Shown one piece after another: positions 13,230 to 43,313 of a stretch of DNA of 55,527 bases. This DNA is from Patescibacteria group bacterium. GTDB taxonomy: Bacteria; Patescibacteriota; Patescibacteriia; UBA1558; UBA10009. The notes beneath the pieces are model-generated. The model was not told the DNA's origin. It searched no databases and worked only from the letters and a program-made list of their open reading frames with translations. The translations under genes were made by a program, and so were the position numbers. Each line of letters starts with the position of its first letter. The stretch's first letter is position 1. The stretch is from assembly GCA_018818425.1 (NCBI GenBank), contig JAHISB010000043.1:1-55527 (forward strand), given 5' to 3'.

Positions 13230-13272
13230 TTATTTTTTTAACGTCGCTCAATTTAATCATTAATATTTCATT

Positions 13273-13357
13273 GGAACATGGGAGCATGTGAGCATTTGAT
13301 CTAATGTTCTCATGTTCTAATGCTCCAGTGTTCTAATGTTCTCATGTTCTAATGTTC
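13273..13357. repeat. 8-nt GARCAYKR word dyad, locus A (atpB|atpE junction)
   Basis: GGAACATG GGAGCATG TGAGCATTTGATC, then TAATGTTC TCATGTTC TAATGCTC CAGTGTTC TAATGTTC TCATGTTC TAATGTTC. Overlaps the atpB stop codon. Confidence 0.85.
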
Positions 13358-17505: not shown

Positions 17506-17530
17506 AAGTTTATTTGATTAATGATTATTG

Positions 17531-17662
17531 GAACATTAGAACATTGGAACACTGGAACATTAGAACATGAGAACACTGGAACATTAGAACACTGGAACAT
17601 TAGAACATTAGAACACTGGAACATGAGAACATGGGATCAAGTGCTAACATGCTCACATGATC
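17531..17662. repeat. 8-nt GARCAYKR word array, locus B (13 direct units plus core)
   Basis: GAACATTA GAACATTG GAACACTG ... GAACATGG (17531-17634), followed by GATCAAGTGCTAACATGCTCACATGATC. Overlaps the metG stop codon. Orientation relative to the genes is opposite to locus A. Confidence 0.9.
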
Positions 17663-19127
17663 AAATTCTCTTAAACAATGGCTCCTTGGGTTTTTTGATT
17701 TTCTTGGCCGTAAATATCTCTGTGATTTTTTCTGAAGTTTGGGGGAGGAAAGGTTTTAACAAATCAGCTATAAGTAAAATTCTTTTAACATAAATTTTTA
17801 GTATAAAATCCAACTCTTCTTTCTTATTCTGATCTTTGGACAATTCCCAGGGCTTAGCGGCATCAATCAGACGATCTGTTTCGCTAATTATATTAAAAAT
17901 TTCCTTTAAAGATTCATTGAATTTGTATTTCTCAATGAATTGACAACACTTTTTGTAACTCTTATCTCTTTTAATATCAAATTCTTCTGTTTTAATATCG
18001 GTAATTAAGTATTTTTCTACCATATTAGAAACTCGCGAAACCAAATTACCCAAACCATTAGCTAAATCCGCATTATATCTTTCATCAAACAATTCTGCTT
18101 TAATATCTGCTTCCTGTCCAAAAGAAAATGGACTTAGTAATAAATAACGTGTACCGTCTGTCCCATACCTTTTTACTAATTCTTCAGGAGTAATAACATT
18201 ACCTAAAGACTTAGACATCTTTCTGCCATCAATTGTAAAAAAACCATGGATAAGCTCTCTTTTAGGTAAAGGTAAATCCAAAGCCATTAACAACGCTGGC
18301 CAATAAAGTGCATGAAACTTTAAAATATCCTGAGCTAGTAAATGCACATCAACGGGCCACCACTTTTTAAACTCTTTTAGATTATTTGGATAACCTATAG
18401 CAGTGATATAATTTGAAAGTGCATCTACCCAAACATATGATTTTTGTGTTTTATCAAAAGGGATGTCCACTCCCCATATTACTGTTTCACGAGATATAGA
18501 AAAATCAGTTACTCCTTGCTCAATTAATCCTAAGGTTTCGTTTTTTCTGCTTGTTGGTAATATTTCAAATTCATTTAACTCGATTTTCTTCTTTAAGTCA
18601 TCTAGGTAATCGCTTAATCTAAAAAACCAATTTTTTTCGGAAAGTTTTTCCGGCTTTTTCTGATGATAGGAGCATTTACCGTCAACTAATTCTTTTTCTG
18701 TGATAAACTTTTCACAACCAGTGCAGTAAAGACCTTCATAATTTCCCTGATAAATAGCTGGGTTACCTTTAGGAGTCTTAGCTTCTTTTAATTGAATAAA
18801 AATTTTTTGAACCGCCTTGATATGACGTTCTTCTGTTGTCCTAATAAAATCGTCATTATCGATATTTAAACTTTTCCAAGCTTTTTTAAAAAGGCCCGAA
18901 GTCTGGTCGCAAAACTTTTGCGGCGAGAGTCCTGAATGCTCGGCTGATTGAGCCACTTTTGTACCATGTTCATCAGTACCAGTTAGAAAAAAAACATTAT
19001 CTTTGCCCAACTTTTCACGATAATAGCGAGCTAAAACATCAGCCATTAAAGTAGTATAAGAATGGCCAATGTGTGGCTTATCATTAACATAATAAATTGG
19101 TGTGGTTATGTAAAATTTTTTGCTCAT
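17661..19127 (-). CDS. metG: Methionyl-tRNA synthetase
   Basis: 488 aa. HIGH (PHIGHSYT), KMSKS and a Cys knuckle CTGCEKF ... CSYH. Confidence 0.95.
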   Translation of the reverse strand: MSKKFYITTPIYYVNDKPHIGHSYTTLMADVLARYYREKLGKDNVFFLTGTDEHGTKVAQSAEHSGLSPQKFCDQTSGLFKKAWKSLNIDNDDFIRTTEERHIKAVQKIFIQLKEAKTPKGNPAIYQGNYEGLYCTGCEKFITEKELVDGKCSYHQKKPEKLSEKNWFFRLSDYLDDLKKKIELNEFEILPTSRKNETLGLIEQGVTDFSISRETVIWGVDIPFDKTQKSYVWVDALSNYITAIGYPNNLKEFKKWWPVDVHLLAQDILKFHALYWPALLMALDLPLPKRELIHGFFTIDGRKMSKSLGNVITPEELVKRYGTDGTRYLLLSPFSFGQEADIKAELFDERYNADLANGLGNLVSRVSNMVEKYLITDIKTEEFDIKRDKSYKKCCQFIEKYKFNESLKEIFNIISETDRLIDAAKPWELSKDQNKKEELDFILKIYVKRILLIADLLKPFLPQTSEKITEIFTAKKIKKPKEPLFKRI

Positions 19128-19978: not shown

Positions 19979-21028
19979 CTATTCTTCTAGTTTGAGTTCG
20001 GTGTTAATCTTCTTCTCAAAAAAATCGCTTAAAAACACCGAAACGCCGGTGGCTACCGGCACCGAAAGCAAAGCGCCCACCACTCCGCCCAGTTTAGCGC
20101 CCACTAAAATCACCACAATCACCACCAAGGGATTAAGGCCCACTGTTTTGCCCATAACTTTGGGCACAATAATATGATTCTCCAGCTGCTGGATAATAAT
20201 ATAAAGTGCTATCACAAAAATACCGGTTAAGGGCGACTGTAAAAAGCCGAAAAACACGGCCGGGATGGCTGCCAAAGTCGGGCCCAAAAAAGGAATAACT
20301 TCCAAAAGGCCGGCAATTAAAGCCAGCAACAAAGCGTACTGCACGCCTAAAATAGACAGGCCAATAAACACTAAGGCAAAAATAATCAAAGAAAGGATCA
20401 GCTGGCCTCTTAGCCATAGGCCCATTTTTCTTTGAATCCTAAACATCAGCTGGTTTATATACGGTTGAATTTTAGACGGGCTGACCGCCCTGATAAAGCT
20501 CTTTAAGCCCTCCTCTTCAACCGTAAAATAAAAAGTGATTACCAAAACCAAAAAGAAAGAGATAATGCCGCCAAAAAAACCAAAGACCGTGGAAAAAATA
20601 TTGGTGATGGCGCCGGGCAGGCTGGAACTTAAAGAATCTATGCCCTGTTGCAGTTCGGTTTCTAACCGCGCCGGAGCCACGCCCTTAAAATAATTAATGC
20701 CGTGAATCACCTTGTCATAGTAATAAGGGAAATTTTTAGCGATCTGGCCGATCTCTTTGGTGATGGGCGGAACAATCAAAACAATGGTTGTGCTGATAAT
20801 GGCAAAAAGGAGCAGATAAATAATAATAATGGCTACGCCCCGGGGAATTTTTCTTTTCTGAAACCAGTCAACCCAGGGGTCAAAGGCCGAAGCCAAAACC
20901 AAAGAAATAAAAATTGAAGCAATCACTTCCTTGATTAAATAAAGAAAAACAATAATTAAAAAAATGAGTAATAATTTCAAAATAGTGGTGGTAGAGATAT
21001 TAATTGTTTGAGAATTTTTGTTTTCCAT
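19979..21028 (-). CDS. AI-2E family transporter (PerM-like permease)
   Basis: 349 aa, polytopic, with the conserved C-terminal IPFLGP and VPKVMG region. Confidence 0.85.
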   Translation of the reverse strand: MENKNSQTINISTTTILKLLLIFLIIVFLYLIKEVIASIFISLVLASAFDPWVDWFQKRKIPRGVAIIIIYLLLFAIISTTIVLIVPPITKEIGQIAKNFPYYYDKVIHGINYFKGVAPARLETELQQGIDSLSSSLPGAITNIFSTVFGFFGGIISFFLVLVITFYFTVEEEGLKSFIRAVSPSKIQPYINQLMFRIQRKMGLWLRGQLILSLIIFALVFIGLSILGVQYALLLALIAGLLEVIPFLGPTLAAIPAVFFGFLQSPLTGIFVIALYIIIQQLENHIIVPKVMGKTVGLNPLVVIVVILVGAKLGGVVGALLSVPVATGVSVFLSDFFEKKINTELKLEE

Positions 21029-21044
21029 AAATTTGTGGGGTTAT

Positions 21045-21143
21045 GAGAACATGGGAGCATGTGATCATGGGAGCATGGGAGCACTTGATCTCATGTTCTC
21101 ATTTTCCAGTGTTCTAATGCTCTAATGTTCCAGTGTTCTAATG
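21045..21143. repeat. 8-nt GARCAYKR word dyad, locus C
   Basis: GAGAACATGGGAGCATGTGATCATGGGAGCATGGGAGCACTTGATC faces TCATGTTC TCATTTTC CAGTGTTC TAATGCTC TAATGTTC CAGTGTTC. Overlaps the M16 stop codon. Confidence 0.85.
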
Positions 21144-22409
21144 ATTTTTGAGTATTTTTAAAAACTTTTTTTTATCTTGATAAGGCCCGATGATGCCCAG
21201 ATTGATTTTCTGGTTTTTGATGATTTCTTGGGCTGTTTGCCGGACCTGGCCGGCTGTGACTTTTTCCACTTTCTTTAACTGCTGGTCTATGGTTTCTATT
21301 TTATTTTTCAAAAGCTGCTGAGCGGCCAGCCACTGAATTCTGGCCGCTGAATCTTCTAGCCCCAAAATCAATTTGCCTTTGATATATTCCTTGCTCCGCT
21401 TCAGTTCTTCGGCAGTGACATCTTTATTAACCGCTTTTTCCAGCTCTTTAAGAATGGTTTTTATAGCTAAATTAATTTTTGATTTATCCAGTCCGGCATA
21501 AACCGCCAACGCCCCGGTGTCCTGATACGGGCTAAGGTCGGTTTTAATATAATAGGCCAGCCCCAGCTTTTCCCTGATTTCCAAAAACAATCTAGAGCTC
21601 ATATTACCTCCTAAAATAATGGCTAACAACAATAACGGGTAGTTCTTGGGATTAGTGATTTTATAAGCGGGAAATCCCAAGGCCAGATGAACCTGCTCGG
21701 TGGCTTTGGTTTTTAAATTGATTCTAGGGCTTTTTTGGAGACTGCTAAATTTTTTAAATGAACTTTTTTTAAAACCGCTGGCTGGCTGATTAAAATATTG
21801 ACTGGCCAGCTTTTTAGTTTTTGGCTGGTTGAATTTGCCGCCCACCGCCACGATAACGTTATCAGCCGCATAATTAGCTTTAAAATAATTAACAATTTCG
21901 GCATGAGAAATTTTTCGGATATTCTCTTTGGAACCGCTGATTACTCTGGCCAGCGAACTGCCCGCAAACACCGCCTCTTCAAAAACATTATCAACCATCA
22001 AAAGCGGATTGTCTTCGTACATATTAATTTCTTCGATAATCACTCCTCTTTCTCTTTCCATCTCTTCTTTGGCAAAAAGTGAATTATGGAGCATGTCCGA
22101 AACCACATCCAAAGCCAGCTCTAAATGTTCGTGATTAACCTTAATGTAATAGCCGGTATGGTCTTTGGCTGTAAAAGCGTTAAAGCTGGCGCCGACGCCG
22201 TCCAGTTCCTTGGTAATATCTAAGCTGGTCGGCCGTTTTTTGGTGCCTTTAAACAGCAGATGTTCGACAAAATGCGAAATGCCATTAAGCTTTGCGGATT
22301 CATAGCGCGAACCGACTTTAACCAATATTAAAACCGTGACCGTTTCTGTGCCTTCCAAGGGCGCCAACAGCAGTTTGGTTTTATTATGTAAAGTTTCTAG
22401 TGTATACAT
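21138..22409 (-). CDS. M16 (pitrilysin) family zinc peptidase
   Basis: HFVEH (HxxEH) zinc motif and downstream EE. I prefer the ATG at 22409, because the 8 extra residues of the track ORF are encoded by repeat locus D. Confidence 0.85.
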   Translation of the reverse strand: MYTLETLHNKTKLLLAPLEGTETVTVLILVKVGSRYESAKLNGISHFVEHLLFKGTKKRPTSLDITKELDGVGASFNAFTAKDHTGYYIKVNHEHLELALDVVSDMLHNSLFAKEEMERERGVIIEEINMYEDNPLLMVDNVFEEAVFAGSSLARVISGSKENIRKISHAEIVNYFKANYAADNVIVAVGGKFNQPKTKKLASQYFNQPASGFKKSSFKKFSSLQKSPRINLKTKATEQVHLALGFPAYKITNPKNYPLLLLAIILGGNMSSRLFLEIREKLGLAYYIKTDLSPYQDTGALAVYAGLDKSKINLAIKTILKELEKAVNKDVTAEELKRSKEYIKGKLILGLEDSAARIQWLAAQQLLKNKIETIDQQLKKVEKVTAGQVRQTAQEIIKNQKINLGIIGPYQDKKKFLKILKNH

Positions 22410-22563
22410 GGGAGCATGGGAGCATGAGAACATGGGAGCAAGTGTTCTAATGCTCTAATGTTCTCATGTTCCAGTGTTTTAATGCTCTAATGTTCTCATG
22501 TTCCAGTGTTCTAATGCTCTAATGTTCTCATGTTCCAGTGTTTTAATGTTCTGGTGTTCTAAT
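22407..22563. repeat. 8-nt GARCAYKR word dyad, locus D (largest, with a 32-nt higher-order repeat)
   Basis: A short forward arm CATGGGAGCATGGGAGCATGAGAACATGGGAGCA, then about 15 complementary units. These include (TAATGCTC TAATGTTC TCATGTTC CAGTGTTY) x3. Overlaps the glyQS stop codon. Confidence 0.9.
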
Positions 22564-23959
22564 ACCCAAACTTCTCTCTAAAATAATCCCTAAGTTCTTT
22601 GATGTTCACCCGATCCTGCTTCATGCTGTCACGGTCTCTGACGGTTACTTTTTTATCTTCTAATGAATCAAAATCAATGGTTACACAATAAGGCGTGCCG
22701 ATTTCATCCTGCCTGCGGTAGCGCTTGCCGATTGTTTGAGTTGTATCGTAAGCGCACATATAGTTTTCTTTAAGCTGGCCGTAAACACTCATCGAAAGCT
22801 CTTCTAATTTTTCTTTTTTTGAAAGCGGCAGGATAGCTATTTTAATCGGCGCTAAATCTTTATGAAGCTTAAGCACAGTTTCTGTTTCGTGCTTAGCATC
22901 TTTATCGCCGCTTCTGGCTTCCATCTCGGTATAAGCATCAACAATAAAAGCCAGAACCGACCTGTCGATACCGCCGGAAGTTTCTATAATATACGGCAGG
23001 TATTTCTCTTTGGAATCTTCGTCTAAAATTTTTAAATCGTGTCCCGAAAATTCTTCGTGTCTTTTTAAATCGAAATCACCGCGATTATGAATGCCTTCCA
23101 GTTCTTTATCGGCAAAAGGGAAATCGTACTCTATATCCACTGCAGCTTTGGCATAATGCGCCAGTTCGTTGTTTTTATGCCGGCGGAGTTTAAGTTTAGC
23201 TTTATTAAGCCCCATTTTCTGATACCATTCGAATCTCTGCTGTTGCCAGTATTCAAACCATTTTTCCGCTTCAGCGGGATGAACAAAATACTGCATCTCC
23301 ATCTGTTCAAACTCCCTGGTCCTGAAAGTAAAATTGCCCGGGGTAATTTCGTTCCTAAAGGCCTTGCCGATCTGGGCGATGCCAAAAGGCATTTTTTTAT
23401 TGGCGGACATCCTCACGTTTTCAAAATTGACGTAAATGCCCTGGGCCGTTTCCGGTCTTAAATAAATTTCCGAAGCTTTGTTTTCCAACGCGCCCATAAA
23501 AGTTTTAAACATTAAATTAAAATCTCTGATTTCTGTCAGCTCGCCATCGCATTCCGGACATTTTATTTTATGCTTTTTAAAATCCGCCTGCCTAAAATCC
23601 GGCTTAATGCCCTTGGATTCTAAAAGATGGTCAGCGCGGAATCTTTTTTTGCATTTTTTACAGTCAACCAGCGGGTCAGTAAAACCTTCCAGATGACCAG
23701 AAGCTTCCCAGATTTTTGGATGCATTAAAATTGAAGAATCCAAGCCCGCCACATCGTCTCTTAGCTGAACCATTTCTTTCCACCAGGCCTTTTTAAGATT
23801 ATTCTTGAGTTCTATGCCTAAAGGACCGTAATCGTAGCAGGAATTAATACCGCCGTAGATTTCGGATGATTGAAAGATGAAGCCGCGGCGTTTGGCTAAA
23901 GAGACTATTTTTTCCATTGTATCTTGTTTGTCCTCTGATTTATCTGATTTCTTTGACAT
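22559..23959 (-). CDS. glyQS: Glycyl-tRNA synthetase (alpha2 type)
   Basis: 466 aa with class II motifs and typical GlyQS sequence (FRNEITPGNFTFRTREFEQME). Confidence 0.95.
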   Translation of the reverse strand: MSKKSDKSEDKQDTMEKIVSLAKRRGFIFQSSEIYGGINSCYDYGPLGIELKNNLKKAWWKEMVQLRDDVAGLDSSILMHPKIWEASGHLEGFTDPLVDCKKCKKRFRADHLLESKGIKPDFRQADFKKHKIKCPECDGELTEIRDFNLMFKTFMGALENKASEIYLRPETAQGIYVNFENVRMSANKKMPFGIAQIGKAFRNEITPGNFTFRTREFEQMEMQYFVHPAEAEKWFEYWQQQRFEWYQKMGLNKAKLKLRRHKNNELAHYAKAAVDIEYDFPFADKELEGIHNRGDFDLKRHEEFSGHDLKILDEDSKEKYLPYIIETSGGIDRSVLAFIVDAYTEMEARSGDKDAKHETETVLKLHKDLAPIKIAILPLSKKEKLEELSMSVYGQLKENYMCAYDTTQTIGKRYRRQDEIGTPYCVTIDFDSLEDKKVTVRDRDSMKQDRVNIKELRDYFREKFGY

Positions 23960-24334: not shown

Positions 24335-26971
24335 TTAAAACTTAGTAGCTTTTTCCACCCTAAGCTCCCCGCCTTTTTCTAAAATAACCTTATCGCGCCG
24401 CCCGATCTTGCCGGTTAATAAATGATTGGCCAGCGCATTATCCACCCTGTCTTGGATAACCCTTTTTAACGGCCTGGCGCCAAAGGTCGGGTCAAAACCG
24501 GCTTGAGCCAGCTCCTCAACGGCCTCGTCGGTAGCTTCCAGATAGATGCCTTTATTAATTAACCTTTTTTTAACTTGAGCCAAAAGCAGGCCGGCGATTT
24601 GCTTAATATGAACCTGGCTTAACGGCTTAAAAACCACTGTGCCGTCAAAACGGTTTAAAAACTCCGGTTTAAAATACTGCCTTAATTCTTCTTGAATTAA
24701 TTGATTTTTGATTTCGTCCATGGTTTTGCCGGCCCTGATGCTGTCCTGAATAAAATGAGCGGCGGCATTGGAAGTGCCGATAATAATGGTGTTGGAAAAA
24801 TCAACGGTCCGGCCCAGGGCATCGGTCAGGCGGCCGTCGTCCATCATTTGCAAGAATAGGTTTAAAATATCCGGGTGGGCTTTTTCTATTTCGTCAAAAA
24901 GCAAAAGGGCAAAAGGCCTTTTTCTGACGGCTTCGGTTAAAATGCCTGTGCCTCCGCTTTCTTTAGAGCCAATCATTTTATTGACGCTTTCTTTAAGCTG
25001 ATATTCGCTCATATCTAATCTGATCATGTTATCCTCGCTGCCAAAATAGATCTGGGCTACGGTTTTGGCCAGTTCGGTTTTGCCCACGCCGGTCGGGCCT
25101 AAAAATAAAAGATTGACAATGGGGCGATTAACGTCCCTTAGTTCTGCCCGGGCCCGGCGCAGGGCCGCCGCCACTAAATTAACGGCCTCTTCCTGATTAA
25201 TTAAGCGCTGGTGGATTCTTTCTTCAAGATGCAGCAGCTTTTCTGATTCATCGTGAGAAACTTCGGTTAAAGGAATATTAGTTTTATGAGAAATGACTCT
25301 GGCAATATCTTCTCCGGCCACTATCTGATTTTTGCCTTTCTCCTGTAGAACCGCCATAGCTGTTTCTTCTAAAATTTTAATGGCTTTATCGGGCAGATAA
25401 TGGTCAGGAATGTATCTCCGGGAGAGCTTAACCGCCTTATCCAGCGCTTCGTAGGTAAAAAAGGCCTGATGTTTGCCTTCAATAAAGCCGACCTGGGCTT
25501 CCACCATCTGAATGGCCCGGTTATCGTCCGGCTCATCGATAATGACTTTTTCTAAAACCTGGCCCAAAGGATTATTTTCTAGATATTTGATATAATCGGC
25601 CGGGGTGGTGGCGGCAATAGTGATAAGATTTTTCTTGGTTAAAAAATCGGCAAACATCTCCGATAAATCTATATTTTCGGTGCCGGCCGAAGTTAAGCCC
25701 ACTAAATTATGAACATCGTCAATATGCAAAATAATATTGCCGGCCCTGATTATTTCTTGCATAATAATCATCACCCGCTGTTCCAGTTCGCCGCTCCGGG
25801 CCGCTCCCGAAACCAGCCGGGAAATAGACAAGCTGACAAATCTTTTATCTTTCATAACTTTCGGCACTTCTTCTTCCACCATTAAATTGGCAATACCCTC
25901 AACCACATTGGATTTGCCCACGCCGGGCAGGCCCGTTAAAACCACGCTGTTTCTGCCTCCCTGAATAATGTTAAAAACCTCATTAATCTCTTTTTCTCTG
26001 GCTATGCACAAAGGCAGATAGCCGGCCCGCGATAAAATGGTCAAGTCTTCGCTAAAGCTGTCTAAAACCGGGGTGGCTAAAGCGGTCATGGCCCGGTCCA
26101 TTGCTCCTTTGGGCTTAAAAGCCGCTTTGGTTCGATGGCGCTGATAGCGCTCCAATAAAACTTTATTGATCTTTGCCCATTTAATGGCGTTGGCCATCAT
26201 TTCTTCGGTTACTTTATAATCAAACAAAACATCCTGAATCACTTTATCCTGCTTGATAACGGCCTCTAAAAAATCCAGAACCGTTACCTGGGATGATGAG
26301 CTTTGGTAAGCCAAAAAATAAGCCAGAGATAAAGTTTTAAGAATTTTTGAACCGGCTTCCTGGCCCTCTGTCTGTGGCAGTTTTTTAACTAGACTGCCGA
26401 TAACCTTTTCAAAATTTTTGAACGGCAGGCTTAAACGAACCATAGTATTGACAATCTTGTTATTGGCAAACAGTCCTGCCAAAATATGCAGAGGGTCTAA
26501 ACTCTGCCCATTAGCTAATGATTTTAAATAAGCTTTATCCAAAATCTTCAACGCTTCATGGGAAAAACTTTTTGAAATTTCGATCCGCTTAACTTTTTTC
26601 TTGGCTGCCGCGGCTTGCTTAAAGCTCTTTTTAACAACTCTTAACGATTTTCTTGAATCAAGAATAAAACTGTAAAAAAGATAGCACCAGCCCAAAACAG
26701 ACCACCAGAAATATTTTAAATAATCCTCCTGCCAAACTGCTGAATTAAAAAATGACTGCCCTGATTGTGACAGCAGCCATAAATGATTGGCTAAAATATA
26801 AAGTCCGTAAAAGCCCAAAGCAAAAAGAGCCAATCTGATAATAAGCTTGATTATTTTTTCTAAACTGCGATAAAAAATAGCTTGTTTAGAAAACTCCCGG
26901 CCCCAGTAAAGCTGCCGCCCTTCCAGCTCTAAATATTCTGATGATAAATTTTCAAAATTTTGTAAATCCAT
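24335..26971 (-). CDS. Membrane-anchored two-ring Clp/Hsp100 AAA+ ATPase (ClpB/ClpC-like, no M domain)
   Basis: N-terminal region of about 125 aa with two hydrophobic helices, then Clp_N repeats. D1 has GLPGVGKS and ILHIDDVH; D2 has GPTGVGKT, LLLFDEIEKAH and GARPLKR. I prefer the ATG at 26971; the TTG at 27010 lies in repeat sequence. Confidence 0.85.
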   Translation of the reverse strand: MDLQNFENLSSEYLELEGRQLYWGREFSKQAIFYRSLEKIIKLIIRLALFALGFYGLYILANHLWLLSQSGQSFFNSAVWQEDYLKYFWWSVLGWCYLFYSFILDSRKSLRVVKKSFKQAAAAKKKVKRIEISKSFSHEALKILDKAYLKSLANGQSLDPLHILAGLFANNKIVNTMVRLSLPFKNFEKVIGSLVKKLPQTEGQEAGSKILKTLSLAYFLAYQSSSSQVTVLDFLEAVIKQDKVIQDVLFDYKVTEEMMANAIKWAKINKVLLERYQRHRTKAAFKPKGAMDRAMTALATPVLDSFSEDLTILSRAGYLPLCIAREKEINEVFNIIQGGRNSVVLTGLPGVGKSNVVEGIANLMVEEEVPKVMKDKRFVSLSISRLVSGAARSGELEQRVMIIMQEIIRAGNIILHIDDVHNLVGLTSAGTENIDLSEMFADFLTKKNLITIAATTPADYIKYLENNPLGQVLEKVIIDEPDDNRAIQMVEAQVGFIEGKHQAFFTYEALDKAVKLSRRYIPDHYLPDKAIKILEETAMAVLQEKGKNQIVAGEDIARVISHKTNIPLTEVSHDESEKLLHLEERIHQRLINQEEAVNLVAAALRRARAELRDVNRPIVNLLFLGPTGVGKTELAKTVAQIYFGSEDNMIRLDMSEYQLKESVNKMIGSKESGGTGILTEAVRKRPFALLLFDEIEKAHPDILNLFLQMMDDGRLTDALGRTVDFSNTIIIGTSNAAAHFIQDSIRAGKTMDEIKNQLIQEELRQYFKPEFLNRFDGTVVFKPLSQVHIKQIAGLLLAQVKKRLINKGIYLEATDEAVEELAQAGFDPTFGARPLKRVIQDRVDNALANHLLTGKIGRRDKVILEKGGELRVEKATKF

Positions 26972-27000
26972 CTTTAAAAAATTACCAAACACTAAAACTA

Positions 27001-27080
27001 AAAGAACCAAACAAGAACCAAAATTAAAAATAAAAAATTTGTATTTTGGAAATTTTAATTTGTTTGGTTCTTGGTTCTTT
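27001..27080. repeat. GAACCAAA word dyad upstream of the Clp gene
   Basis: AAAGAACCAAACAAGAACCAAAA faces TTTGTTTGGTTCTTGGTTCTTT. A related segment occurs in-frame in tgt (29271-29345). Confidence 0.7.
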
Positions 27081-27088
27081 TGATTTGG

Positions 27089-27454
27089 TCATTTTATTAT
27101 AAATAATTGCCAGACCGCCGCCAGCGGCAGACCTAAGTAAATAATAGGGATTAGTAAGATAAAAGCGGAAATGATGGCCATAATAATAAATCTGAAAATA
27201 ATCTGCACCACTCTCATTAAAAAACTGATTATTCTGCTGGCCGCATCGTACTGGCCGTACATAGGCCTAAAGATATTCTTTAGCCAGACATCCAAAGCTA
27301 AACCTATCCAGGCGCCGGCTATTTTTTTAAAAGTATTCTTTAAGATAATCAAAAAACCGCCGGAATACCACCAAAGCGGCCAATAAAAAATGTGTTTAAT
27401 AATGGCTAAGCTAATGCTTTTGGCTGAAAATAAAGTCTGCTCTCCTGTTTTCAT
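27089..27454 (-). CDS. Hypothetical polytopic membrane protein
   Basis: 121 aa, 3-4 hydrophobic helices, immediately upstream of the Clp gene. Confidence 0.4.
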   Translation of the reverse strand: MKTGEQTLFSAKSISLAIIKHIFYWPLWWYSGGFLIILKNTFKKIAGAWIGLALDVWLKNIFRPMYGQYDAASRIISFLMRVVQIIFRFIIMAIISAFILLIPIIYLGLPLAAVWQLFIIK

Positions 27455-27913: not shown

Positions 27914-28174
27914 CTATCCTGTTTTTTGAAAATCGTCTTGAGTAATTTCGGCCGACTCTGCTTTTTGTAACTGGGAGGGTTTGCAATTCAAAGGCATTTC
28001 TTGATTTTTAAATTTTACCAGAACCGTTCCGTCAGGTACTCCTGGTTTAATAACCTCGCCTACTCCCAAATCCGCATAGGGACGTTCTAAAAAAACTTCT
28101 GTACCGATGGGCAGGTCCTCGAGCGTCAACTCTTCCTCCTCTTTTGATATTCGTTCAAAAGGTATATTTTTCAT
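27914..28174 (-). CDS. Hypothetical protein
   Basis: 86-aa acidic ORF, 9 nt downstream of the preceding gene stop. Confidence 0.35.
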   Translation of the reverse strand: MKNIPFERISKEEEELTLEDLPIGTEVFLERPYADLGVGEVIKPGVPDGTVLVKFKNQEMPLNCKPSQLQKAESAEITQDDFQKTG

Positions 28175-28183
28175 AATTACAAT

Positions 28184-28528
28184 TTATTTAACTATTTTAG
28201 ATTGATGATACTTTTCTTGAAAATAAGTTAATTTCTTTATTTCCTCTTTAGAATAATCCTGATAATCAGTCACGACTAATTTTATCTCATCGTTATCTCG
28301 CTTTATAACAGCGATAACTATACCTGCAAATTTTTTAATGGGAAAATTAGGACCTAACACATAGGCATCAATTTCTTCGTTATCAACTTCGGAAAAAGTA
28401 TCAGGGATAAAACCATAATTTACCGGATAAACAGTTTTAAACTTTGAGTCTGGATGCCTCGATCCCAGCGGCCTATCGATTATTACTTTTACTTTTTTAC
28501 CCAACCATGATTCGCATTCATTATTCAT
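28184..28528 (-). CDS. Short inorganic-pyrophosphatase-like protein
   Basis: 114 aa. VKVIIDRPLGSRHP ... YPVNYGFIP ... EEIDAYVLG resembles the roughly 110-aa PPase-fold family. Recalled from memory, not searched. Confidence 0.5.
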   Translation of the reverse strand: MNNECESWLGKKVKVIIDRPLGSRHPDSKFKTVYPVNYGFIPDTFSEVDNEEIDAYVLGPNFPIKKFAGIVIAVIKRDNDEIKLVVTDYQDYSKEEIKKLTYFQEKYHQSKIVK

Positions 28529-28570
28529 AATTACAATTTATTTTGACTAATTGACTTTCTAATTCCTGGA

Positions 28571-28663: not shown

Positions 28664-29914
28664 TTATAATTTATTCTCTTTAACAGCGCTTCTGATCTCT
28701 TTCATTAAATTAATATAAAACTCCAAATTATTCAAGGTGGCTAAGCGCAAAGCCAGCGGTTCGTTGACAGAAAACAGATGGCGAAGATAGGCCTTAGAAT
28801 ATTCTTTGAGTTCGGGGATTTTTGAATTTGGATTGATTGGATTTATATCTCTGGCGAATTTTGCCGACTTAATGTTGATAGTTTGATAAAACAAGGATTG
28901 GGTATTGAAAGTTGCAGCCGACAGCTCGCCTTGATTCGGCGAAGCAGGCCTGGCTGTCGGCTTCCGAGATTTGTTGAAATAATACAGCCGTCCATGCCTG
29001 GCCTCGCGCGTCGGAATCACGCAATCAAACATATCAACGCCCCGCCTAATCGCTTCAACGATTTGCTCCGGATAGCCAACGCCCATCAAATACCGGGGTT
29101 TATCTTCCGGAAGTTCCGGAACAGTATAATCCAATACTTTATACATCTCTTCTGGACTTTCGCCCACTGCCAAGCCGCCGATGGCATAGCCGTCGAAGTT
29201 CAATTTGACTAACTCACGAGCACAGTGTATCCGAAGCTCTTTATATAATGACCCCTGAACTATGGCAAATAAATTACCAAAATTAAAAGAACCAAAAACC
29301 AAATTTTTTGATTTTTGATTTTTGATTTGTTTGTCTCTTTTAGTTTTTAATTTGGAATTTTTATATTCAATACTTTTTTCCGCCCATTTCAGAGTTCTCT
29401 CCACAGCTTCTTGGGCTTTCCCGCGAGCGCAGGGATTAGCTACACACTGATCCAAAACCATGATAATATCTGAACCAAAAATCTTTTGCATTTTAATGAC
29501 TGATACTGGAGTAAAAAGATGCTTTGACCCGTCGTAGACTGACTTAAATTCTACGCCCTTATCTGTAACTTTAACCAGGCCTCCCGGCTGGCTGTCCTGG
29601 CGTTTTCCATCAAGACTGAATACTTGGAAACCGCCGCTATCTGTGAGAATCGGCCCCGGCCAGTTTATGAATCGGCGCAAGCCGCCTGATTTTTTGATTA
29701 TTAATAAGCCCGGTTTTAGATATAAATGATAACTGTTGCCTAAAACAATTTGCGCGCCGATTTTTTTGACTTCTGATGAATTGAGGGTTTTGACGCTGCC
29801 CCTGGTGGCAATGGGCATAAAAAACGGCGTTTGGATTTTGCCGTGGGCCGTTTGTAAAACGCCGGCTCGAGCCAAACTTTTTATTGATTTTTTTGTCAGC
29901 TTAAATAAATTCAT
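28664..29914 (-). CDS. tgt: tRNA-guanine transglycosylase with two insertions and no zinc-ligand residues
   Basis: 416 aa. LTDSGGFQ, AIGGLAVGE, LMGVGYPEQI and GVDMFDCVIPTR motifs are present. See findings for the insertions and the lost CxCxxC...H. Confidence 0.9.
   Translation of the reverse strand: MNLFKLTKKSIKSLARAGVLQTAHGKIQTPFFMPIATRGSVKTLNSSEVKKIGAQIVLGNSYHLYLKPGLLIIKKSGGLRRFINWPGPILTDSGGFQVFSLDGKRQDSQPGGLVKVTDKGVEFKSVYDGSKHLFTPVSVIKMQKIFGSDIIMVLDQCVANPCARGKAQEAVERTLKWAEKSIEYKNSKLKTKRDKQIKNQKSKNLVFGSFNFGNLFAIVQGSLYKELRIHCARELVKLNFDGYAIGGLAVGESPEEMYKVLDYTVPELPEDKPRYLMGVGYPEQIVEAIRRGVDMFDCVIPTREARHGRLYYFNKSRKPTARPASPNQGELSAATFNTQSLFYQTINIKSAKFARDINPINPNSKIPELKEYSKAYLRHLFSVNEPLALRLATLNNLEFYINLMKEIRSAVKENKL
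28914..28964. repeat. REP-like palindrome with expanded loop, in-frame inside tgt
   Basis: AGCCGACAGC (28916-28925) pairs with GCTGTCGGCT (28953-28962). The stem is the same as the GCCGACAGCCAGGCTGTCGGC repeats near the RAYT gene. Confidence 0.7.
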
Positions 29915-32740: not shown

Positions 32741-33292
32741 TTATATATAATCAATCTCAATTAATTCTTTTTCTGTTTTGTAATGATTATGAAATGATGA
32801 GTAAGGCCAAGTTATGGGATCGTCAACGATTCGATGCTTAACAGCGTTATAGTTGATGTAATCTATTTTATTATCTAATTCCCGGTCCGAACGAACAATT
32901 CTGTCGTGGAAAGAACGTTGCCAAATGGAATTTAGACATCGTTGGCCTTCTAACCACGCGCCGGGCAGCCGACAGCCAGGCTGTCGGCTGCGGAGATCGT
33001 GGTTATATTTGCGAATATCACGCGCAGTTCGATATTTTATCAACTGCATTATCTTGGAAATATTTTTTCCTCTTCTAGGTAGAATTAATAAATGAACATG
33101 CCAAGGTATAATACAATAGGCGTATAATCTAAATTTTAACTTTCTTCGATAAAAATCAATATTTTTTAATAAAATCTGACAATATTCATTATTGGTAAAT
33201 ATTCTTTGATCATTAATTGTATTTGATGTGACAAAATAAATCTCACCATCAACATTCATTCTTATTTGAGGCATAAAATCGCTTTTCGTCAA
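32741..33292 (-). CDS. IS200-like Y1 (HUH) transposase, REP-associated tyrosine transposase (RAYT)-like
   Basis: HUH motif HVHLLI and C-terminal YINYNAVKH tyrosine helix. The track start is TTG, and an ATG alternative lies at 33274. Contains a REP palindrome in-frame and has two more copies just upstream. Confidence 0.8.
   Translation of the reverse strand: MTKSDFMPQIRMNVDGEIYFVTSNTINDQRIFTNNEYCQILLKNIDFYRRKLKFRLYAYCIIPWHVHLLILPRRGKNISKIMQLIKYRTARDIRKYNHDLRSRQPGCRLPGAWLEGQRCLNSIWQRSFHDRIVRSDRELDNKIDYINYNAVKHRIVDDPITWPYSSFHNHYKTEKELIEIDYI
32965..32991. repeat. Perfect 27-bp REP palindrome inside the RAYT gene
   Basis: GCAGCCGACAGCC A GGCTGTCGGCTGC, encoding SRQPGCRLP. Confidence 0.9.
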
Positions 33293-33304
33293 TTGTTATC
33301 TATC

Positions 33305-33442
33305 CGGCAACCGACAGCCAGGCTGTCGGCTTCGTGGTTCGGTGAATGATTGCTGTCGGCTGCGGATGTGCGGTAGGCAATGGATGTGAGGCAGACAACG
33401 GATGTGCGGCAACCGACAGCCAGGCTGTCGGCTTCGTGGTTC
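33305..33442. repeat. REP cluster: two identical 36-bp units flanking GGATGTG(C/A)GG repeats
   Basis: CGGCAACCGACAGCCAGGCTGTCGGCTTCGTGGTTC at 33305-33340 and 33407-33442. A half-site TGCTGTCGGCTGCGG at 33351-33365. Three copies of an 18-bp GGATGTG... unit lie between them. Confidence 0.9.
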
Positions 33443-39297: not shown

Positions 39298-39384
39298 AGT
39301 TCTAATAATATTAATTAATTCTCAATTCTTTGTTAATCGTAAATTGTGAGATAAACTCTCAACAAAAAAACAACAAATCTCGGA

Positions 39385-39407
39385 AGCCGACAGCCAGGCT
39401 GTCGGCT
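39385..39407. repeat. REP palindrome copy
   Basis: AGCCGACAGCCAGGCTGTCGGCT, followed by two small hairpins (CCAGCCAGAGGCTGG and TCGGCCTTTGGCCGA). Confidence 0.85.
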
Positions 39408-39465
39408 GCAACGTTTAATCCCCAGCCCTCCCAGCCAGAGGCTGGTCGGCCTTTGGCCGAAATCA

Positions 39466-40314: not shown

Positions 40315-40366
40315 TTTAATTTATTTTATACCCCGTTGCTTTTATAATTCCGAAGCGGCGGAGCTT

Positions 40367-40500
40367 AGCATGAGAACATTGGAGCATGGGAGCATGAGAA
40401 CATTGGAGCATGGGAGCATTGGAGCATGGGAGCATTTGATCATATGTTCTAATGCTCTAATGTTCAAGTGTTCCAGTGTTCCCATGCTCCAATGTTCCAT
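40367..40500. repeat. 8-nt GARCAYKR word dyad, locus E
   Basis: Eight forward units (GAACATTG GAGCATGG GAGCATGA ...) meet at GAGCATTTGATC with seven complementary units (TAATGCTC TAATGTTC ... CCATGCTC CAATGTTC). Confidence 0.9.
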
Positions 40501-40511
40501 TGAGTATAATA

Positions 40512-41120
40512 TTATCTACTATACTTTCTGGAAGTTATAGTTGTTTGGAAATGAGTTACTCTTGGCTCTGTCTCGATATTGCCTTCGCTGTGCAAGCTTT
40601 CGGTTTCTAAAATAATGGTTGCCATTGGCTGTTGATTATTGGCATAGCCGCCGTCTGGCTGCCATAAAAAGGGGTTTTCGGCCGGCGTAATATAAAAATC
40701 CAGGCGAATAACATTTAAATCTTCGGGAGTGATATCCAGCCACTGTTCGCCTTCTGTGTCATAAAATTGAATAACAAAACGCTCCGAACCAAGTTCGCTT
40801 TCCGCTCTCCTAAAAATAAGCTGATTATTATCCGGGTCTATAATGGCTAAAATTGCAAGAGGCATATTTCCTAAGGGAGTTTCATAGTAACTATAATCAA
40901 TCTGACCCATTCTCACCTCCCGCGCTATAACTTCTAAAGCATAGCGGGCATCGGAAAGAGCCCGCTGAATGTTGGCCGTTCTTTTTTGGACAGTATTGCT
41001 CTGGACAAAAATGGCCAAAGAATAAGTGGCGGCCACAGTAAAAATCGCCAAAGCCACCACTGTTTCCATAATGGTAAAGCCCCGGCTTTTCTGAATATTA
41101 AATTTTATTTTCTTGAACAT
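40512..41120 (-). CDS. Prepilin-type minor pilin (PilW-like position)
   Basis: Prepilin N-terminus SRGFTIMETVVALAIF. I prefer the ATG at 41120 over the track start at 41186. Confidence 0.7.
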   Translation of the reverse strand: MFKKIKFNIQKSRGFTIMETVVALAIFTVAATYSLAIFVQSNTVQKRTANIQRALSDARYALEVIAREVRMGQIDYSYYETPLGNMPLAILAIIDPDNNQLIFRRAESELGSERFVIQFYDTEGEQWLDITPEDLNVIRLDFYITPAENPFLWQPDGGYANNQQPMATIILETESLHSEGNIETEPRVTHFQTTITSRKYSR

Positions 41121-41176
41121 GAATAATATATTATTGAACCACGATTTACGAATGACGAATAACGAGTTACAAACCC

Positions 41177-41803
41177 TTATTTCCAATCATAAATTCTGTC
41201 AATCACTTTTAAATCGTGGTCTTGGTTATTATCATGCCAGGTTACTTGAGAAGTTAACTGCCAGCCAATTAAGCCCAAGCCAAAACTCTGACAATGCTCG
41301 CTGTTATCTAAAACCGCTTCTTCTTCAGACAATTCGCTCCAGCAAATTTCCTGAATGGTAATTAACCTTTTAAAACTGGTGAGCTCGCCGCCGTCATCGT
41401 GAGAAAAAACGCCGTTATCGGCATTATAATAAAGCTGGCATTCTGAACAGTCGGCAATATCATCGGTCTGGTCTGCGGTTGACCAACTGTTATCAGTAGG
41501 ATTAAAATTAACGGTCAGGCGATAGTTATATTGAGGATCTTCTAAAATTCCTGCATCCCAATCCTCACCGGCCAGCCAGTTGCTGTCGCGCATCTGCCTG
41601 ATAACTTCCAGGCCTTCCCTGGCAAAATTAGCGGCCATTAATCTGCCTTCGCCGGCTACCGAAACATTTAAATTAAAAGTGGTTAAAGTCAAGCCGCTGA
41701 TAATGCCTGTTACCAAAATGCCTAAAGCGACAATAACTTCCATAAAAGTCATGCCTTCCTGGGCAAGCAAATTTTTAGACGATAATAACTTTTTAAAAAT
41801 CAT
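41177..41803 (-). CDS. Prepilin-type minor pilin (PilV-like position)
   Basis: QEGMTFMEVIVALGILVTG N-terminal methylation-type motif. Confidence 0.7.
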   Translation of the reverse strand: MIFKKLLSSKNLLAQEGMTFMEVIVALGILVTGIISGLTLTTFNLNVSVAGEGRLMAANFAREGLEVIRQMRDSNWLAGEDWDAGILEDPQYNYRLTVNFNPTDNSWSTADQTDDIADCSECQLYYNADNGVFSHDDGGELTSFKRLITIQEICWSELSEEEAVLDNSEHCQSFGLGLIGWQLTSQVTWHDNNQDHDLKVIDRIYDWK

Positions 41804-41830
41804 TATTGATAATCGGTTAAATCAGCAAGT

Positions 41831-42553
41831 TTATTTGCCTTTTGGTTTTTTGGGCTTTTTAAAGCCGTCGCCGCCCAGCATATTGCCCAATGCCTGGCCG
41901 CCTTCCAAAACTTCGGCGGTAATGCGGCCGGTTATGCGGTTAACATTAACTACGCCCATCTTGCCCGGCACATTAGATCTAAACAAGGTAATGTTGGACT
42001 CAGTAGCATGCTCCTCCTCGCCCTCAACATAATTAATATAAATCATTGGTTTAGGCGGTTTAAAAACAACGGCTAAATCATCAATCTCCTCTGAACCGGC
42101 CTCTACACCTATTAAATAAATATCTTCTGGCAGCTCCACGGTTTGGATAATGTCGTCTTCCAGGCCATAATTTTTATCACCATTGTCGTCAATAAAAATT
42201 ACATATTCCCAAGCAGGCGTAGTCGCATCAAAATAAACGCCATAAGCAATGCTGGACATATCCTGGTCGCTGACTCCGGCCAGAGCCATGGTCTGCGCTT
42301 TTCTGATGTCGCTGGCCACCTGCTCAATGGCCACTCTGAATTCTTCTATGTGCCGGCTTTCCCTTAGCCCCTGGTAGGAAAAAATAAACACCATCATAAA
42401 AATGCTGACCACCACTATAAGCTCGACAAGGGTAAACCCCGCACCAGAAATTGGTGCGCGGGTAAAGCCGGCTGTTTTTTTGAATCTAGCGAAAATTGAG
42501 ATTAACCTAGGGCCGATTTTTTTATCATCAGCCGCTTTTTTTTCTTTAACCAT
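41831..42553 (-). CDS. Prepilin-type protein (FimT/GspH-like position) with long leader
   Basis: GAGFTLVELIVVVSIF preceded by a 38-aa leader containing GFTRAP. Overlaps pilD by 8 nt. Confidence 0.7.
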   Translation of the reverse strand: MVKEKKAADDKKIGPRLISIFARFKKTAGFTRAPISGAGFTLVELIVVVSIFMMVFIFSYQGLRESRHIEEFRVAIEQVASDIRKAQTMALAGVSDQDMSSIAYGVYFDATTPAWEYVIFIDDNGDKNYGLEDDIIQTVELPEDIYLIGVEAGSEEIDDLAVVFKPPKPMIYINYVEGEEEHATESNITLFRSNVPGKMGVVNVNRITGRITAEVLEGGQALGNMLGGDGFKKPKKPKGK

Positions 42554-43313
42554 ATAAAAAACTCCTTGAATACCACTCTAAAATTTGTTGACCAAATAAT
42601 AGAGTGATTAATGTGGCGGCCGATAAAAAAGTGCCGAAAGGAATTTGGCTATGCCATTCTTTTTTTTTGGCCATAATCAAAACCAGGCCGATAATCGAGC
42701 CGCTTATGTAAGCTAAAAATAAAGCAATTAAAGCCTGGGGCCAGCCCAGCATGGCTCCCATAACCAAGCCCAGCCGGACATCGCCCCCGCCGATCCATTT
42801 GCCCTTGGAAAGTACCAGCTGAAAAAAGAAAAAACCCGCCACCAAGATGCTGGCCAGCAATAAGTTGAATAAGGGGTGGCCCAAAAGCAAATTTATCAGC
42901 AAAGCTATAAAAAAGGCGGGCAAGCTGACTTTGTCAACAATCAAGTAGTGCTTTAAGTCGTAAACAAAAATAATAATTAAAAAACAGCTGAAGACCAAAA
43001 AAACTAAAAACTGAAAATTCAAGACTGGAAATTCGTTTTGATACTTTAAATAGCCGAGAATGAATATTAAAGCGGTGGCAAGTTCCACCAAAGGATACTG
43101 CCAGGAAATTTTTTTATGGCAGTAACGGCACTTGGCTCTTAAAAAAATAAAGCTTAAAACAGGAACTAAATCTTTAACCGCTAAAAGATGCCGGCAATGG
43201 GGGCATTTGGACCGTTCGCTGACAATGTTCTCGCCGGATTTTAAACGATAAATAACGGCATTCAAAAAACTGCCGATAATTAAGCCGAAAATAAATAAAA
43301 AAAATAGTATCAT
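42546..43313 (-). CDS. pilD: Prepilin peptidase (A24 family)
   Basis: 255 aa. N-terminal CPHC ... CRYC zinc motif and polytopic A24 domain with the GGGDV aspartate motif. Confidence 0.9.
   Translation of the reverse strand: MILFFLFIFGLIIGSFLNAVIYRLKSGENIVSERSKCPHCRHLLAVKDLVPVLSFIFLRAKCRYCHKKISWQYPLVELATALIFILGYLKYQNEFPVLNFQFLVFLVFSCFLIIIFVYDLKHYLIVDKVSLPAFFIALLINLLLGHPLFNLLLASILVAGFFFFQLVLSKGKWIGGGDVRLGLVMGAMLGWPQALIALFLAYISGSIIGLVLIMAKKKEWHSQIPFGTFLSAATLITLLFGQQILEWYSRSFLYG

Follow-up and report, generated by a model that had tools for sequence, protein, structure and literature searches.

We analysed a 55,527-nt contig of a Patescibacteria group bacterium (GenBank assembly GCA_018818425.1, contig JAHISB010000043.1; hereafter the window) and in particular its tgt gene, which lies on the minus strand at 28664-29914 and encodes a full-length bacterial-type tRNA-guanine(34) transglycosylase (Tgt) of 416 aa. 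With good but not complete confidence, we take the gene to encode a working zinc-independent Tgt in which two palindromic mobile elements landed in frame, in loops that are unstructured in the model, and are now translated. One insertion is a copy of a family of repetitive extragenic palindromes (REPs) associated with a transposase gene in the same window; the other is a copy of an AT-rich dyad family otherwise found between genes. Both the loss of the zinc ligands and the insertions are common to related genomes, which indicates a habit of the lineage rather than a one-off.

A bacterial-type Tgt without zinc ligands

A reading made earlier from the letters alone (the sequence-only reading) had named the open reading frame (ORF) a Tgt with intact catalytic motifs, and profile searches and structure prediction bear this out. 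The ORF matches the Pfam TGT model with E 1e-131 and, at 425.6 bits, passes the 306.75-bit cut-off of the NCBIfam equivalog TIGR00430. Among solved structures it is closest to the Zymomonas mobilis TGT entries (E about 1e-90), and the motifs LTDSGGFQ, GGLAVGE, LMGVGYPEQI and DMFDCVIPTR are all present. Among the 120 best homologues (clusters at 90% identity, 50-67% identical to the window protein), D92, D155, Q220, G247, V250, M277 and D297 are invariant and C157, L248 and E252 nearly so; the seven invariant residues are equivalent to Z. mobilis D102, D156, Q203, G230, V233, M260 and D280, respectively. The catalytic Asp nucleophile and general acid-base (Z. mobilis D280 and D102) are both kept, the preQ1 pocket (Z. 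mobilis D156, Q203, G230, L231 and M260) is complete with L248 for L231, and the pair associated with bacterial preQ1 specificity, C158/V233, is retained as C157/V250. The aromatic dimer contact W326/Y330/H333 reads Y372/Y376/H379 and is largely conserved among the homologues. An AlphaFold2 model built on an alignment of 50 homologues has a mean predicted local distance difference test score (pLDDT) of 87 and a predicted template modelling score (pTM) of 0.87; Foldseek places it on Z. mobilis TGT with a target-normalised TM score of 0.90-0.91 and a root-mean-square deviation of 2.2-2.9 Å, and both methods show the (beta/alpha)8 barrel with its C-terminal subdomain. The protein thus resembles the Z. 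mobilis and E. coli enzymes (EC 2.4.2.29) in its TIM barrel, small C-terminal subdomain, Asp pair, preQ1 pocket and dimer aromatics. It differs from them in three enlarged loops, two of which are repeat-encoded, and in having Ser/Ile/Leu/Asn and a Cys-free subdomain where they have a Cys3His zinc site. We therefore describe it as what appears to be a zinc-free Tgt variant, in which every bacterial-Tgt feature that we tested is found except the zinc motif.

The evidence for the missing ligands is an HMMER alignment that sets window residues 345-415 opposite Z. mobilis TGT 299-369 without a gap and from which the ligand columns were read. C318, C320, C323 and H349, which we take to be the zinc ligands of the Z. 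mobilis enzyme in structure-based numbering, stand opposite S364 (codon 28823-28825), I366 (28817-28819), L369 (28808-28810) and N395 (28730-28732), and the structural CxCxxC...H pattern is absent from the former zinc site (28730-28825, minus strand). The only cysteines of the protein are at 157, 162, 231 and 298, so that no alternative metal site is possible in the C-terminal subdomain. Replacement of all four ligands, as first proposed by hand alignment, is thereby upheld, and alignment to a characterised Tgt places no ligand elsewhere, there being no Cys after residue 298.

That proposal had framed the loss as something that happened in this gene. The same pattern, S-x-[ILFM]-x-x-L...N or close variants of it, occurs in 99 of the 120 best homologues, and only 21 have three Cys and one His (CCCH). 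In 91 of these 99 the C-terminal subdomain holds no Cys at all, and in none does it hold three or more; the zinc-free segment SKAYLRHLFSVxEPLALRLATLNNLEFY is among their best-conserved parts. The nearest database relatives, where named, are Komeilibacteria, Falkowbacteria, Buchananbacteria, Kerfeldbacteria or 'Parcubacteria group', all Patescibacteria. Among loci from GTDB genomes, the zinc-free form is found in genomes labelled Falkowbacteria and in several labelled Parcubacteria or Patescibacteria; CCCH is kept in Uhrbacteria, in one Kerfeldbacteria genome and in most Moraniibacteriota (locus L029 being the exception). A wider survey of the 150 best representatives of 50%-identity clusters gave CCCH in 109 and other patterns (SCAA, SADH, IIAH, THVH and so on) in about 35 full-length proteins, each of which keeps the active-site Asp positions D92/D155/D297. 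The first two Cys are missing in three Chlorobiales loci (L071, L073 and L075), where GFDNHVC...H stands in place of the full ligand set and the active-site Asp positions are kept. Partial or complete ligand loss, again with these positions kept, was also observed in P0174, P0183, P0185, P0188 and others; one such pattern, S-x-C-x-x-A...A/I, occurs in proteins that otherwise resemble ordinary Tgt of bacteria outside the candidate phyla radiation (CPR). Judged from these comparisons, the loss of the zinc site is an old, clade-wide trait that recurs in other forms elsewhere and no event of the window gene alone. The genome is not zinc-free in general, since its NAD-dependent DNA ligase retains a C4 zinc-finger domain.

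The four zinc ligands have been called 'absolutely conserved' in TGTs of all three domains, and six sequences were left out of the published tree, either for inconsistent lengths or because the conserved aspartates and zinc ligands were lacking or failed to align (PMC3074131). Our literature search, which did not cover subscription journals, found no description of a zinc-ligand-free Tgt and no discussion of one for CPR bacteria. There are precedents for zinc-independent variants of zinc proteins in the Cys-less 'C-' paralogues of ribosomal proteins. Within the queuosine pathway itself, QueD2 is a case in which a structural or catalytic zinc requirement is removed or relaxed in a paralogue or lineage (PMC9894224), as we propose for the window Tgt. 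The window gene differs from both in being the only copy seen and not a stress-induced paralogue. Were the subdomain to hold together as we propose, aliphatic side chains would fill the space once held by zinc, and the small C-terminal subdomain and its dimer contact (Y372/Y376/H379) would then be kept without metal. The AlphaFold2 model is confident over residues 343-416, the former zinc region included (pLDDT 93-99).

Reported absolute conservation of the ligands, together with the reduced genomes of CPR bacteria and the lack of further queuosine genes among the annotated ORFs of the window, could also suggest that the gene is decaying or inactive, with zinc-site loss and repeats as steps of pseudogenisation. 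We regard this as very improbable: the reading frame is unbroken and its score exceeds the equivalog cut-off, the insertions preserve the frame in several genomes, the same sequence occurs in two independent samples, and the invariance of the catalytic residues among homologues no more than 67% identical, together with the strong conservation of the zinc-free C-terminal segment, has the appearance of purifying selection. The zinc subdomain of classical Tgt takes part in the dimer interface and in tRNA binding (PMC3074131), and the loop after GRLY is 9-11 aa longer across the CPR clade than in other bacteria. Both facts would suit a Tgt paralogue with an altered partner, oligomeric state or nucleic-acid substrate (compare eukaryotic QTRT2 and the DNA-modifying DpdA) whose variable loops serve a new role. 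Such a paralogue seems improbable to us, if somewhat less so than decay, because the preQ1-specificity pocket (C157, V250) and both catalytic Asp are kept, the gene is the sole Tgt-like gene seen at a conserved syntenic position in four genomes, and QTRT2 scores 81 bits versus 305 against the window Tgt. A working, zinc-independent Tgt is the reading we retain. That the enzyme tolerates both the insertions and the loss of zinc we infer from conservation. The sequence-only reading had further called the enzyme essential, for which there is no support: tgt is dispensable in model bacteria, and a viable E. coli mutant without Tgt was reportedly isolated by Noguchi et al. in 1982.

Two palindromic elements in frame within tgt

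Insertion 2 (28911-28976, minus strand) occupies about residues 314-335 of the loop 313-344 and is a copy of the REP family. On the coding strand it reads CAACAAATCTCGGAAGCCGACAGCCAGGC-[24 nt]-TGTCGGCTGCAAC, with arms GCCGACAGC and GCTGTCGGC at 28953-28961 and 28917-28925. Over 29 nt (28948-28976), 14 of which lie outside the stem, it is 100% identical to an intergenic REP at 39371-39412, and a second exact block of 15 nt (28911-28925) follows on the other side. This intergenic copy (39371-39425, plus strand; hairpin z = -4.2) is the nearest to the tgt copy and has the flanks in common as well. Allowing up to one mismatch, the 9-mer GCCGACAGC has 28 occurrences in the window where 4.9 would be expected, and insertion 2 as a DNA hairpin folds with z = -3.4. 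The insert-spanning peptide stretches of the window protein are KPTARPASPNQGELSAATFNTQ and NQKSKNLVFGSFNFGN. The 21-nt palindrome is open in all three frames; tgt uses frame 2 (PTARLS). These results substantiate the suggestion that insertion 2 derives from a REP-like palindrome with the stem of the transposase-associated repeats. That account has to be amended in one respect, since the insertion consists of the REP and of 24 further bases in the REP loop (28924-28947, minus strand; 8 codons, PASPNQGE). These bases are missing from the sister genome described below and from the other REP copies, and we found no second copy of them in the window, where the spacer of the composite REP at 33305-33363 bears only a weak likeness to them.

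The runs that contain the window sequence are groundwater metagenomes. Logan contigs of one run (X1) cover the tgt gene without differences at about 40x depth, and a contig of a run from a different study (X2) shows no difference in 28814-29084, a stretch that takes in the whole of insertion 2. Since identical contigs come from two independent runs, insertion 2 is no assembly artefact; neither indel variants nor polymorphism of the 24-nt extension was seen among the reads and contigs of the two runs.

Copies of the REP family lie around and inside a transposase gene of the window. A REP-associated tyrosine transposase (RAYT) of the TnpA_REP-like Y1 type is encoded at 32741-33274 on the minus strand, within ORF 32741-33292 (Pfam Y1_Tnp 1.8e-9), with the HUH motif HVH and the catalytic-Tyr motif YINYNAVKH. 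Its only credible match among solved structures is E. coli TnpA_REP (4er8, E 6.8e-9), with which it aligns over the HUH part and the helix of the catalytic Tyr. Just upstream of the gene lie two full REPs (33310-33330 and 33412-33432) and a half REP (33352-33360), together spanning 33305-33442. Inside the RAYT itself lies a further REP (32963-32998, minus strand; palindrome 32968-32988), which reads in frame 3 (RQPGCR) as SRQPGCRLPG. The palindrome GCCGACAGCCAGGCTGTCGGC is thus found at 32968, 33310, 33412 and 39386, with the half copy at 33352, so that 55 kb hold four canonical copies, the extended tgt copy and a half copy; the DNA hairpins of all copies fold with z between -2.5 and -4.4. The RAYTs of three syntenic genomes carry in-frame palindromes at one internal site, between the HUH half and the Tyr helix (window 32963-32998, L081:6401-6543 and L142:7116-7226), and these palindromes differ: GCCGACAGCCAGGCTGTCGGC in the window, a GAGGATAAATTCCTC type in L081 and three copies of GGCGAACCTTCATGGTTCGCC in L142.

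RAYT genes with flanking REPs of the same family have been termed REPtrons (PMC3733652), and the RAYT and its adjoining REPs form such an arrangement. Like TnpA_REP in its REPtron, the window RAYT is single-copy, occupies a site of conserved synteny and is accompanied by REPs. Its similarity to the E. coli protein is limited to about E 7e-9, and any action on these REPs is putative. The intragenic REPs of the GTAG/CGTC class described by Di Nocera et al. (2013) likewise lie wholly inside ORFs, in many cases those of enzymes acting on nucleic acids, encode 20-30 aa and belong to families that flank RAYTs (PMC3733652). The window family differs from them in its host phylum, in occurring also inside the RAYT ORF and in the absence of the GTAG/CGTC end tag, its ends reading CGGAA/CGGCA/GGGCA ... 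TGC. Outside the window, a scan of metagenomes for the REP gave 57 matches, most of them isolated chance hits in high-GC contigs, so that only about 8 contigs, of low GC, matter here. Further REP copies lie in low-GC contigs of another sample, and a set from one sample looks, at a guess, like a eukaryotic repeat.

The history of insertion 2 can be followed in the closest homologue (P0002, 67% identity), which lies on a syntenic contig, L081, in the order IleRS-RAYT-RecO-large protein-(one extra gene)-Tgt. The RAYT of this contig is 45% identical to that of the window and has a different insert at the internal REP site. The tgt of L081 has a REP, CGGCAGCCGAGAGCCAGGCTCTCGATT, at the codon of insertion 2 and with its reading frame, and the peptides compare as R-Q-P-R-A-R-L-S in L081 and R-K-P-T-A-R-[PASPNQGE]-L-S in the window. 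The check proposed earlier, on orthologues in sister genomes, thus finds the REP present and the 24 loop bases absent. Most simply, the REP would have entered before the window and L081 lineages split, and the 24 extra bases would have come later or be the remnant of a REP doublet. The stems of the two copies differ by a compensatory pair, GACAG/CTGTC in the window and GAGAG/CTCTC in L081, which keeps the pairing; the outer right arm of the L081 copy has decayed (GATTAC for GGCTGC). REPs of the GAGAG type exist as free copies in other low-GC contigs, so that the difference could equally stem from selection for pairing, from conversion towards the REP consensus of one genome or from separate insertions.

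Insertion 1 (29280-29347, minus strand) falls in the stretch of residues about 184-213 (KNSKLKTKRDKQIKNQKSKNLVFGSFNFGN) and belongs to a family of AT-rich dyads that otherwise lie between genes. Another copy in the window is an intergenic dyad (AAAAGAACCAAGAACCAAAC ... GTTTGGTTCTTGTTTGGTTCTTTT; 26985-27095, minus strand; fold z = -4.0) between ORF 27089-27454 and the Clp ATPase gene. The family is that of the AAGAACCAA dyad, with arms AAAAGAACCAA(G/A)... and ...TTGGTTCTTTT. Insertion 1 had no significant ungapped BLAST match in the window when judged by dinucleotide shuffles (31/200 for the best hit and 11/200 for the regional sum). We then retested it by gapped local alignment with block-wise shuffles, in which the A-rich and T-rich halves were shuffled separately. 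Against the reverse complement of 26985-27095, insertion 1 scored z 11.4 with dinucleotide shuffles (0/1000) and z 8.1 with the halves shuffled separately (0/2000). Against L107:5950-6050, where an intergenic dyad stands among other genes and in a contig of a different sample, the block-wise test gave z 9.4 (0/2000), with about 84% identity over 62 nt; the two dyads themselves (26985-27095 and L107:5961-6042) are 83% identical over 82 nt. The likeness reported at the outset to the dyad upstream of the Clp gene is therefore real by the gapped test.

The recurrence of the peptide LVFGxF near Clp, also reported at the outset, was found as well, in a TTG-started 5' extension of the Clp ORF that is probably non-coding. 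With this TTG start the Clp/AAA+ ORF (24335-27010) runs into the dyad (26971-27010, peptide MVLLVLVFGNFLK); an ATG at MDLQNF (about 26971) is the more likely start, because the syntenic homologues have 871-877 aa. The window also holds long intergenic dyads built of units with an 8-nt period, at 13239-13370, 17518-17680, 21028-21158, 22377-22580 and 40353-40510. Their units are CATGAGAA/CATTGGAG/CATGGGAG in one arm and TGTTCTAA/TGCTCTAA/TGTTCCAG in the other, copies match over up to about 145 nt per arm, a relative lies at L107:7359-7461 in another sample, and they belong to no Rfam family. A similar unit, AGAACCAA, occurs in the dyad family of insertion 1.

Could the inserts be ordinary lineage-specific loop expansions that resemble repeats by chance in low-complexity sequence? 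The AT-rich, Lys-rich composition of the insertion-1 region and the ungapped test, in which 31 of 200 shuffles did as well, would allow this. For insertion 2 the exact identity over 29 and 15 nt to another REP, flanks included, contradicts it, and for insertion 1 the gapped scores exceed all 2000 block-wise shuffles with two independent dyad copies; we give this explanation hardly any credence.

Insertion 1 is not private to the window. The same insertion with the same boundaries is found in Tgt of L042 and L142 (P0004-P0006), and with the REP in L081 neither insert belongs to this genome only. Between the window and L042, the insertion is 78% identical as DNA and 57% as protein, and identity at third codon positions is 0.77 versus 0.46 gene-wide. 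The DNA is therefore better conserved than the peptide, which argues against conservation at the protein level independently of the DNA repeat, the finding that would have spoken against a repeat origin. In L142 the tgt dyad is the top inverted repeat of its 21-kb locus; the window copy folds only weakly as DNA (z = -1.5), its left arm having decayed. The carriers sit in separate subclades, and the insertion may be old with losses, or reflect repeated insertion or recombination. A further protein, P0017, matches P0006 in its N-terminal part (in the stretches shown), insertion 1 included, and is of CCCH type in its C-terminal part; it comes from a recombinant gene or a chimeric metagenome assembly.

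Probable permissive loops and a possible role of the hairpins

Several lines of evidence suggest that the insertions occupy permissive loops. Both lie inside the ORF, keep the frame, in several genomes, and are absent from homologues. Within the otherwise confident AlphaFold2 model, pLDDT is low at residues 95-110, about 200-213 and 327-339; it falls below 50 only at 95-106, 108-110 and 327-339, the last inside the insertion-2 loop, and the first half of insertion 1 prolongs helix 164-199 while the remainder is poorly ordered (mean pLDDT 55 for the block 201-210). The placement in loops rests on pLDDT and secondary structure. Besides the two insertions named by the sequence-only reading, a third loop (residues 101-113, DGKRQDSQPGG; 29576-29614, minus strand), recognised in the alignment and by its low pLDDT, is hypervariable, the loop after GFQVFSL ranging from 5 to 37 aa among homologues. 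The distance from PTR to YSKAYL, which contains insertion 2, is 39-41 aa in non-CPR Tgt and 48-51 aa in most CPR proteins, and reaches 87 aa in individual CPR lineages.

Other CPR lineages fill the same loops with unrelated palindromes. In the L140 protein (P0023) the PTR-YSKAYL loop contains a 135-nt hairpin (-52 kcal/mol) with the stem GTCATTGCGAG.../...CTCGCAATGAC, which recurs between genes at L140:7372-7463; the loop insert of L141 (P0019) opens with the same motif, and in L142 the loop is occupied by a further, distinct hairpin that is read in another frame. The loop after GFQVFSL of P0023 holds a 35-aa insert, NKKAKKHRPKADQPLKPWAYQPLAVAEESKEADA (L140:761-865), with a 17-nt direct repeat at both ends and strong hairpin potential (-38.7 kcal/mol). 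In this other lineage the third Tgt loop thus contains a repeat-like insert. For the loop inserts of L013, L016, L005, L014, L007, L009 and L042 no second copies were found within their flanks, so that a repeat origin is suggested there by the peptides only.

These patterns could arise if palindromic elements reach many places and, in essential-like or useful genes, persist only as in-frame, stop-free copies in permissive loops. The filter would then be selection in a gene under purifying selection and not target preference, and survival of frame-keeping copies alone would give three Tgt loops the look of hot spots. Such phenomena are already known in kind. Rickettsia palindromic elements (RPEs) occur in frame inside protein-coding genes and are compatible with the fold of the host protein (PMC10969869), and intragenic REPs occur in several phyla, in genes that include tRNA synthetases and a tRNA pseudouridine synthase (PMC3733652); zinc-independent enzyme variants are likewise known. 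RPEs have been copied into unrelated housekeeping genes and are translated as extra segments, as predicted for the window insertions (PMC10969869). They differ in being about 150 bp long, in residing in alphaproteobacterial intracellular parasites and in having no known transposase; the window elements are about 36-70 nt, belong to a CPR genome, and one family lies beside its RAYT. The literature search described above found no intragenic palindromes in CPR bacteria. What is added here, as far as the sequences indicate, is a case from CPR bacteria in which the RAYT lies close by, and a hot spot that clearly extends over several lineages.

The palindromes in tgt might instead be kept for a role as nucleic acid, for example as an mRNA structure with a slowing or regulating effect on translation or decay, or as a RAYT binding site, the peptides being a by-product. 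REPs that lie downstream of genes have been proposed to function as RNA elements (PMC3733652). The pairing-preserving difference between the window and L081 stems fits such a role, as do the excess of nucleotide (0.78) over amino acid (0.57) identity in insertion 1 with its third-position value of 0.77, and the L142 dyad, still the best inverted repeat of its locus. However, consensus conversion or independent insertion explains the apparent compensation equally well, given the free GAGAG-type REPs; the third-position identity is inflated by the codon bias of A-rich Lys and Asn codons; and the L081 outer right arm and the insertion-1 left arm in the window (fold z = -1.5) have decayed. We consider a nucleic-acid role unlikely, though a more serious candidate than decay of the gene or a change of its function. 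A bolder proposal appears equally doubtful: that a large Patescibacteria lineage (labelled Falkowbacteria, Komeilibacteria, Buchananbacteria and other Parcubacteria) inserts queuosine with a metal-free Tgt whose knuckle is rebuilt as a small hydrophobic core, that three exposed loops are landing pads for at least three unrelated palindrome families, and that at least the REP hairpin, with its compensatory stem change and its identity to free copies, is actively maintained as a functional nucleic-acid element and is no neutral junk.

Some results weigh against a working zinc-independent Tgt with tolerated insertions. The tgt gene was found in no RNA run searched, and no other queuosine genes were seen among the annotated ORFs, which are a part of the ORFs in a small sample of 55 kb. 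AlphaFold2 models no metals and its alignment held a few CCCH sequences, so confidence in the subdomain is no proof of zinc-free stability. In a neighbour-joining tree the proteins with insertion 1 fall in dispersed subclades whose nearest members lack it, and the compensatory stem difference in insertion 2 could mean a selected hairpin, beyond mere tolerance. We nevertheless hold to the reading given at the outset.

Other window features and significance

Scans around tgt for promoters and terminators gave nothing above shuffles, and in the whole window no Rfam family reached its gathering threshold and the tRNA scan found none. An ORF of 549 aa on the plus strand (45664-47313), amid mostly minus-strand genes, looks foreign or fast-evolving; GC falls to 0.21 (46001-47000) and Pfam gives no match. 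Positions 28166-28189 and 28520-28543 form a direct repeat of 24 nt with 96% identity, which spans the start codon and leader of each of two neighbouring small ORFs on the minus strand; one, 27914-28174, belongs to no family, and the other, 28184-28528, encodes a short pyrophosphatase-like protein. At 40512-43313, adjoining one of the 8-nt-period dyads, lie type IV pilin-like genes with the N-terminal methylation motif and a prepilin peptidase (A24), an ordinary complement for CPR bacteria.

Tgt is a long-studied enzyme and a drug target, and a large conserved clade without any ligand, together with the many other non-CCCH patterns in metagenomic protein space, means that the rule of ligand conservation is not general. 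The zinc-free clade would offer a natural design for a metal-free subdomain. Metal starvation inhibits queuosine-tRNA biosynthesis in Acinetobacter baumannii (PMC9894224), and a zinc-free Tgt bears on how queuosine modification may proceed under zinc scarcity. For annotators, RKPTARL, LRFARND and similar peptides within CPR proteins can be read as repeat-encoded. The insertions extend the 'selfish DNA inside proteins' of the Rickettsia type to CPR bacteria, and one conserved enzyme supplies a clean set of repeatedly hit permissive loops that may be useful for Tgt protein engineering.

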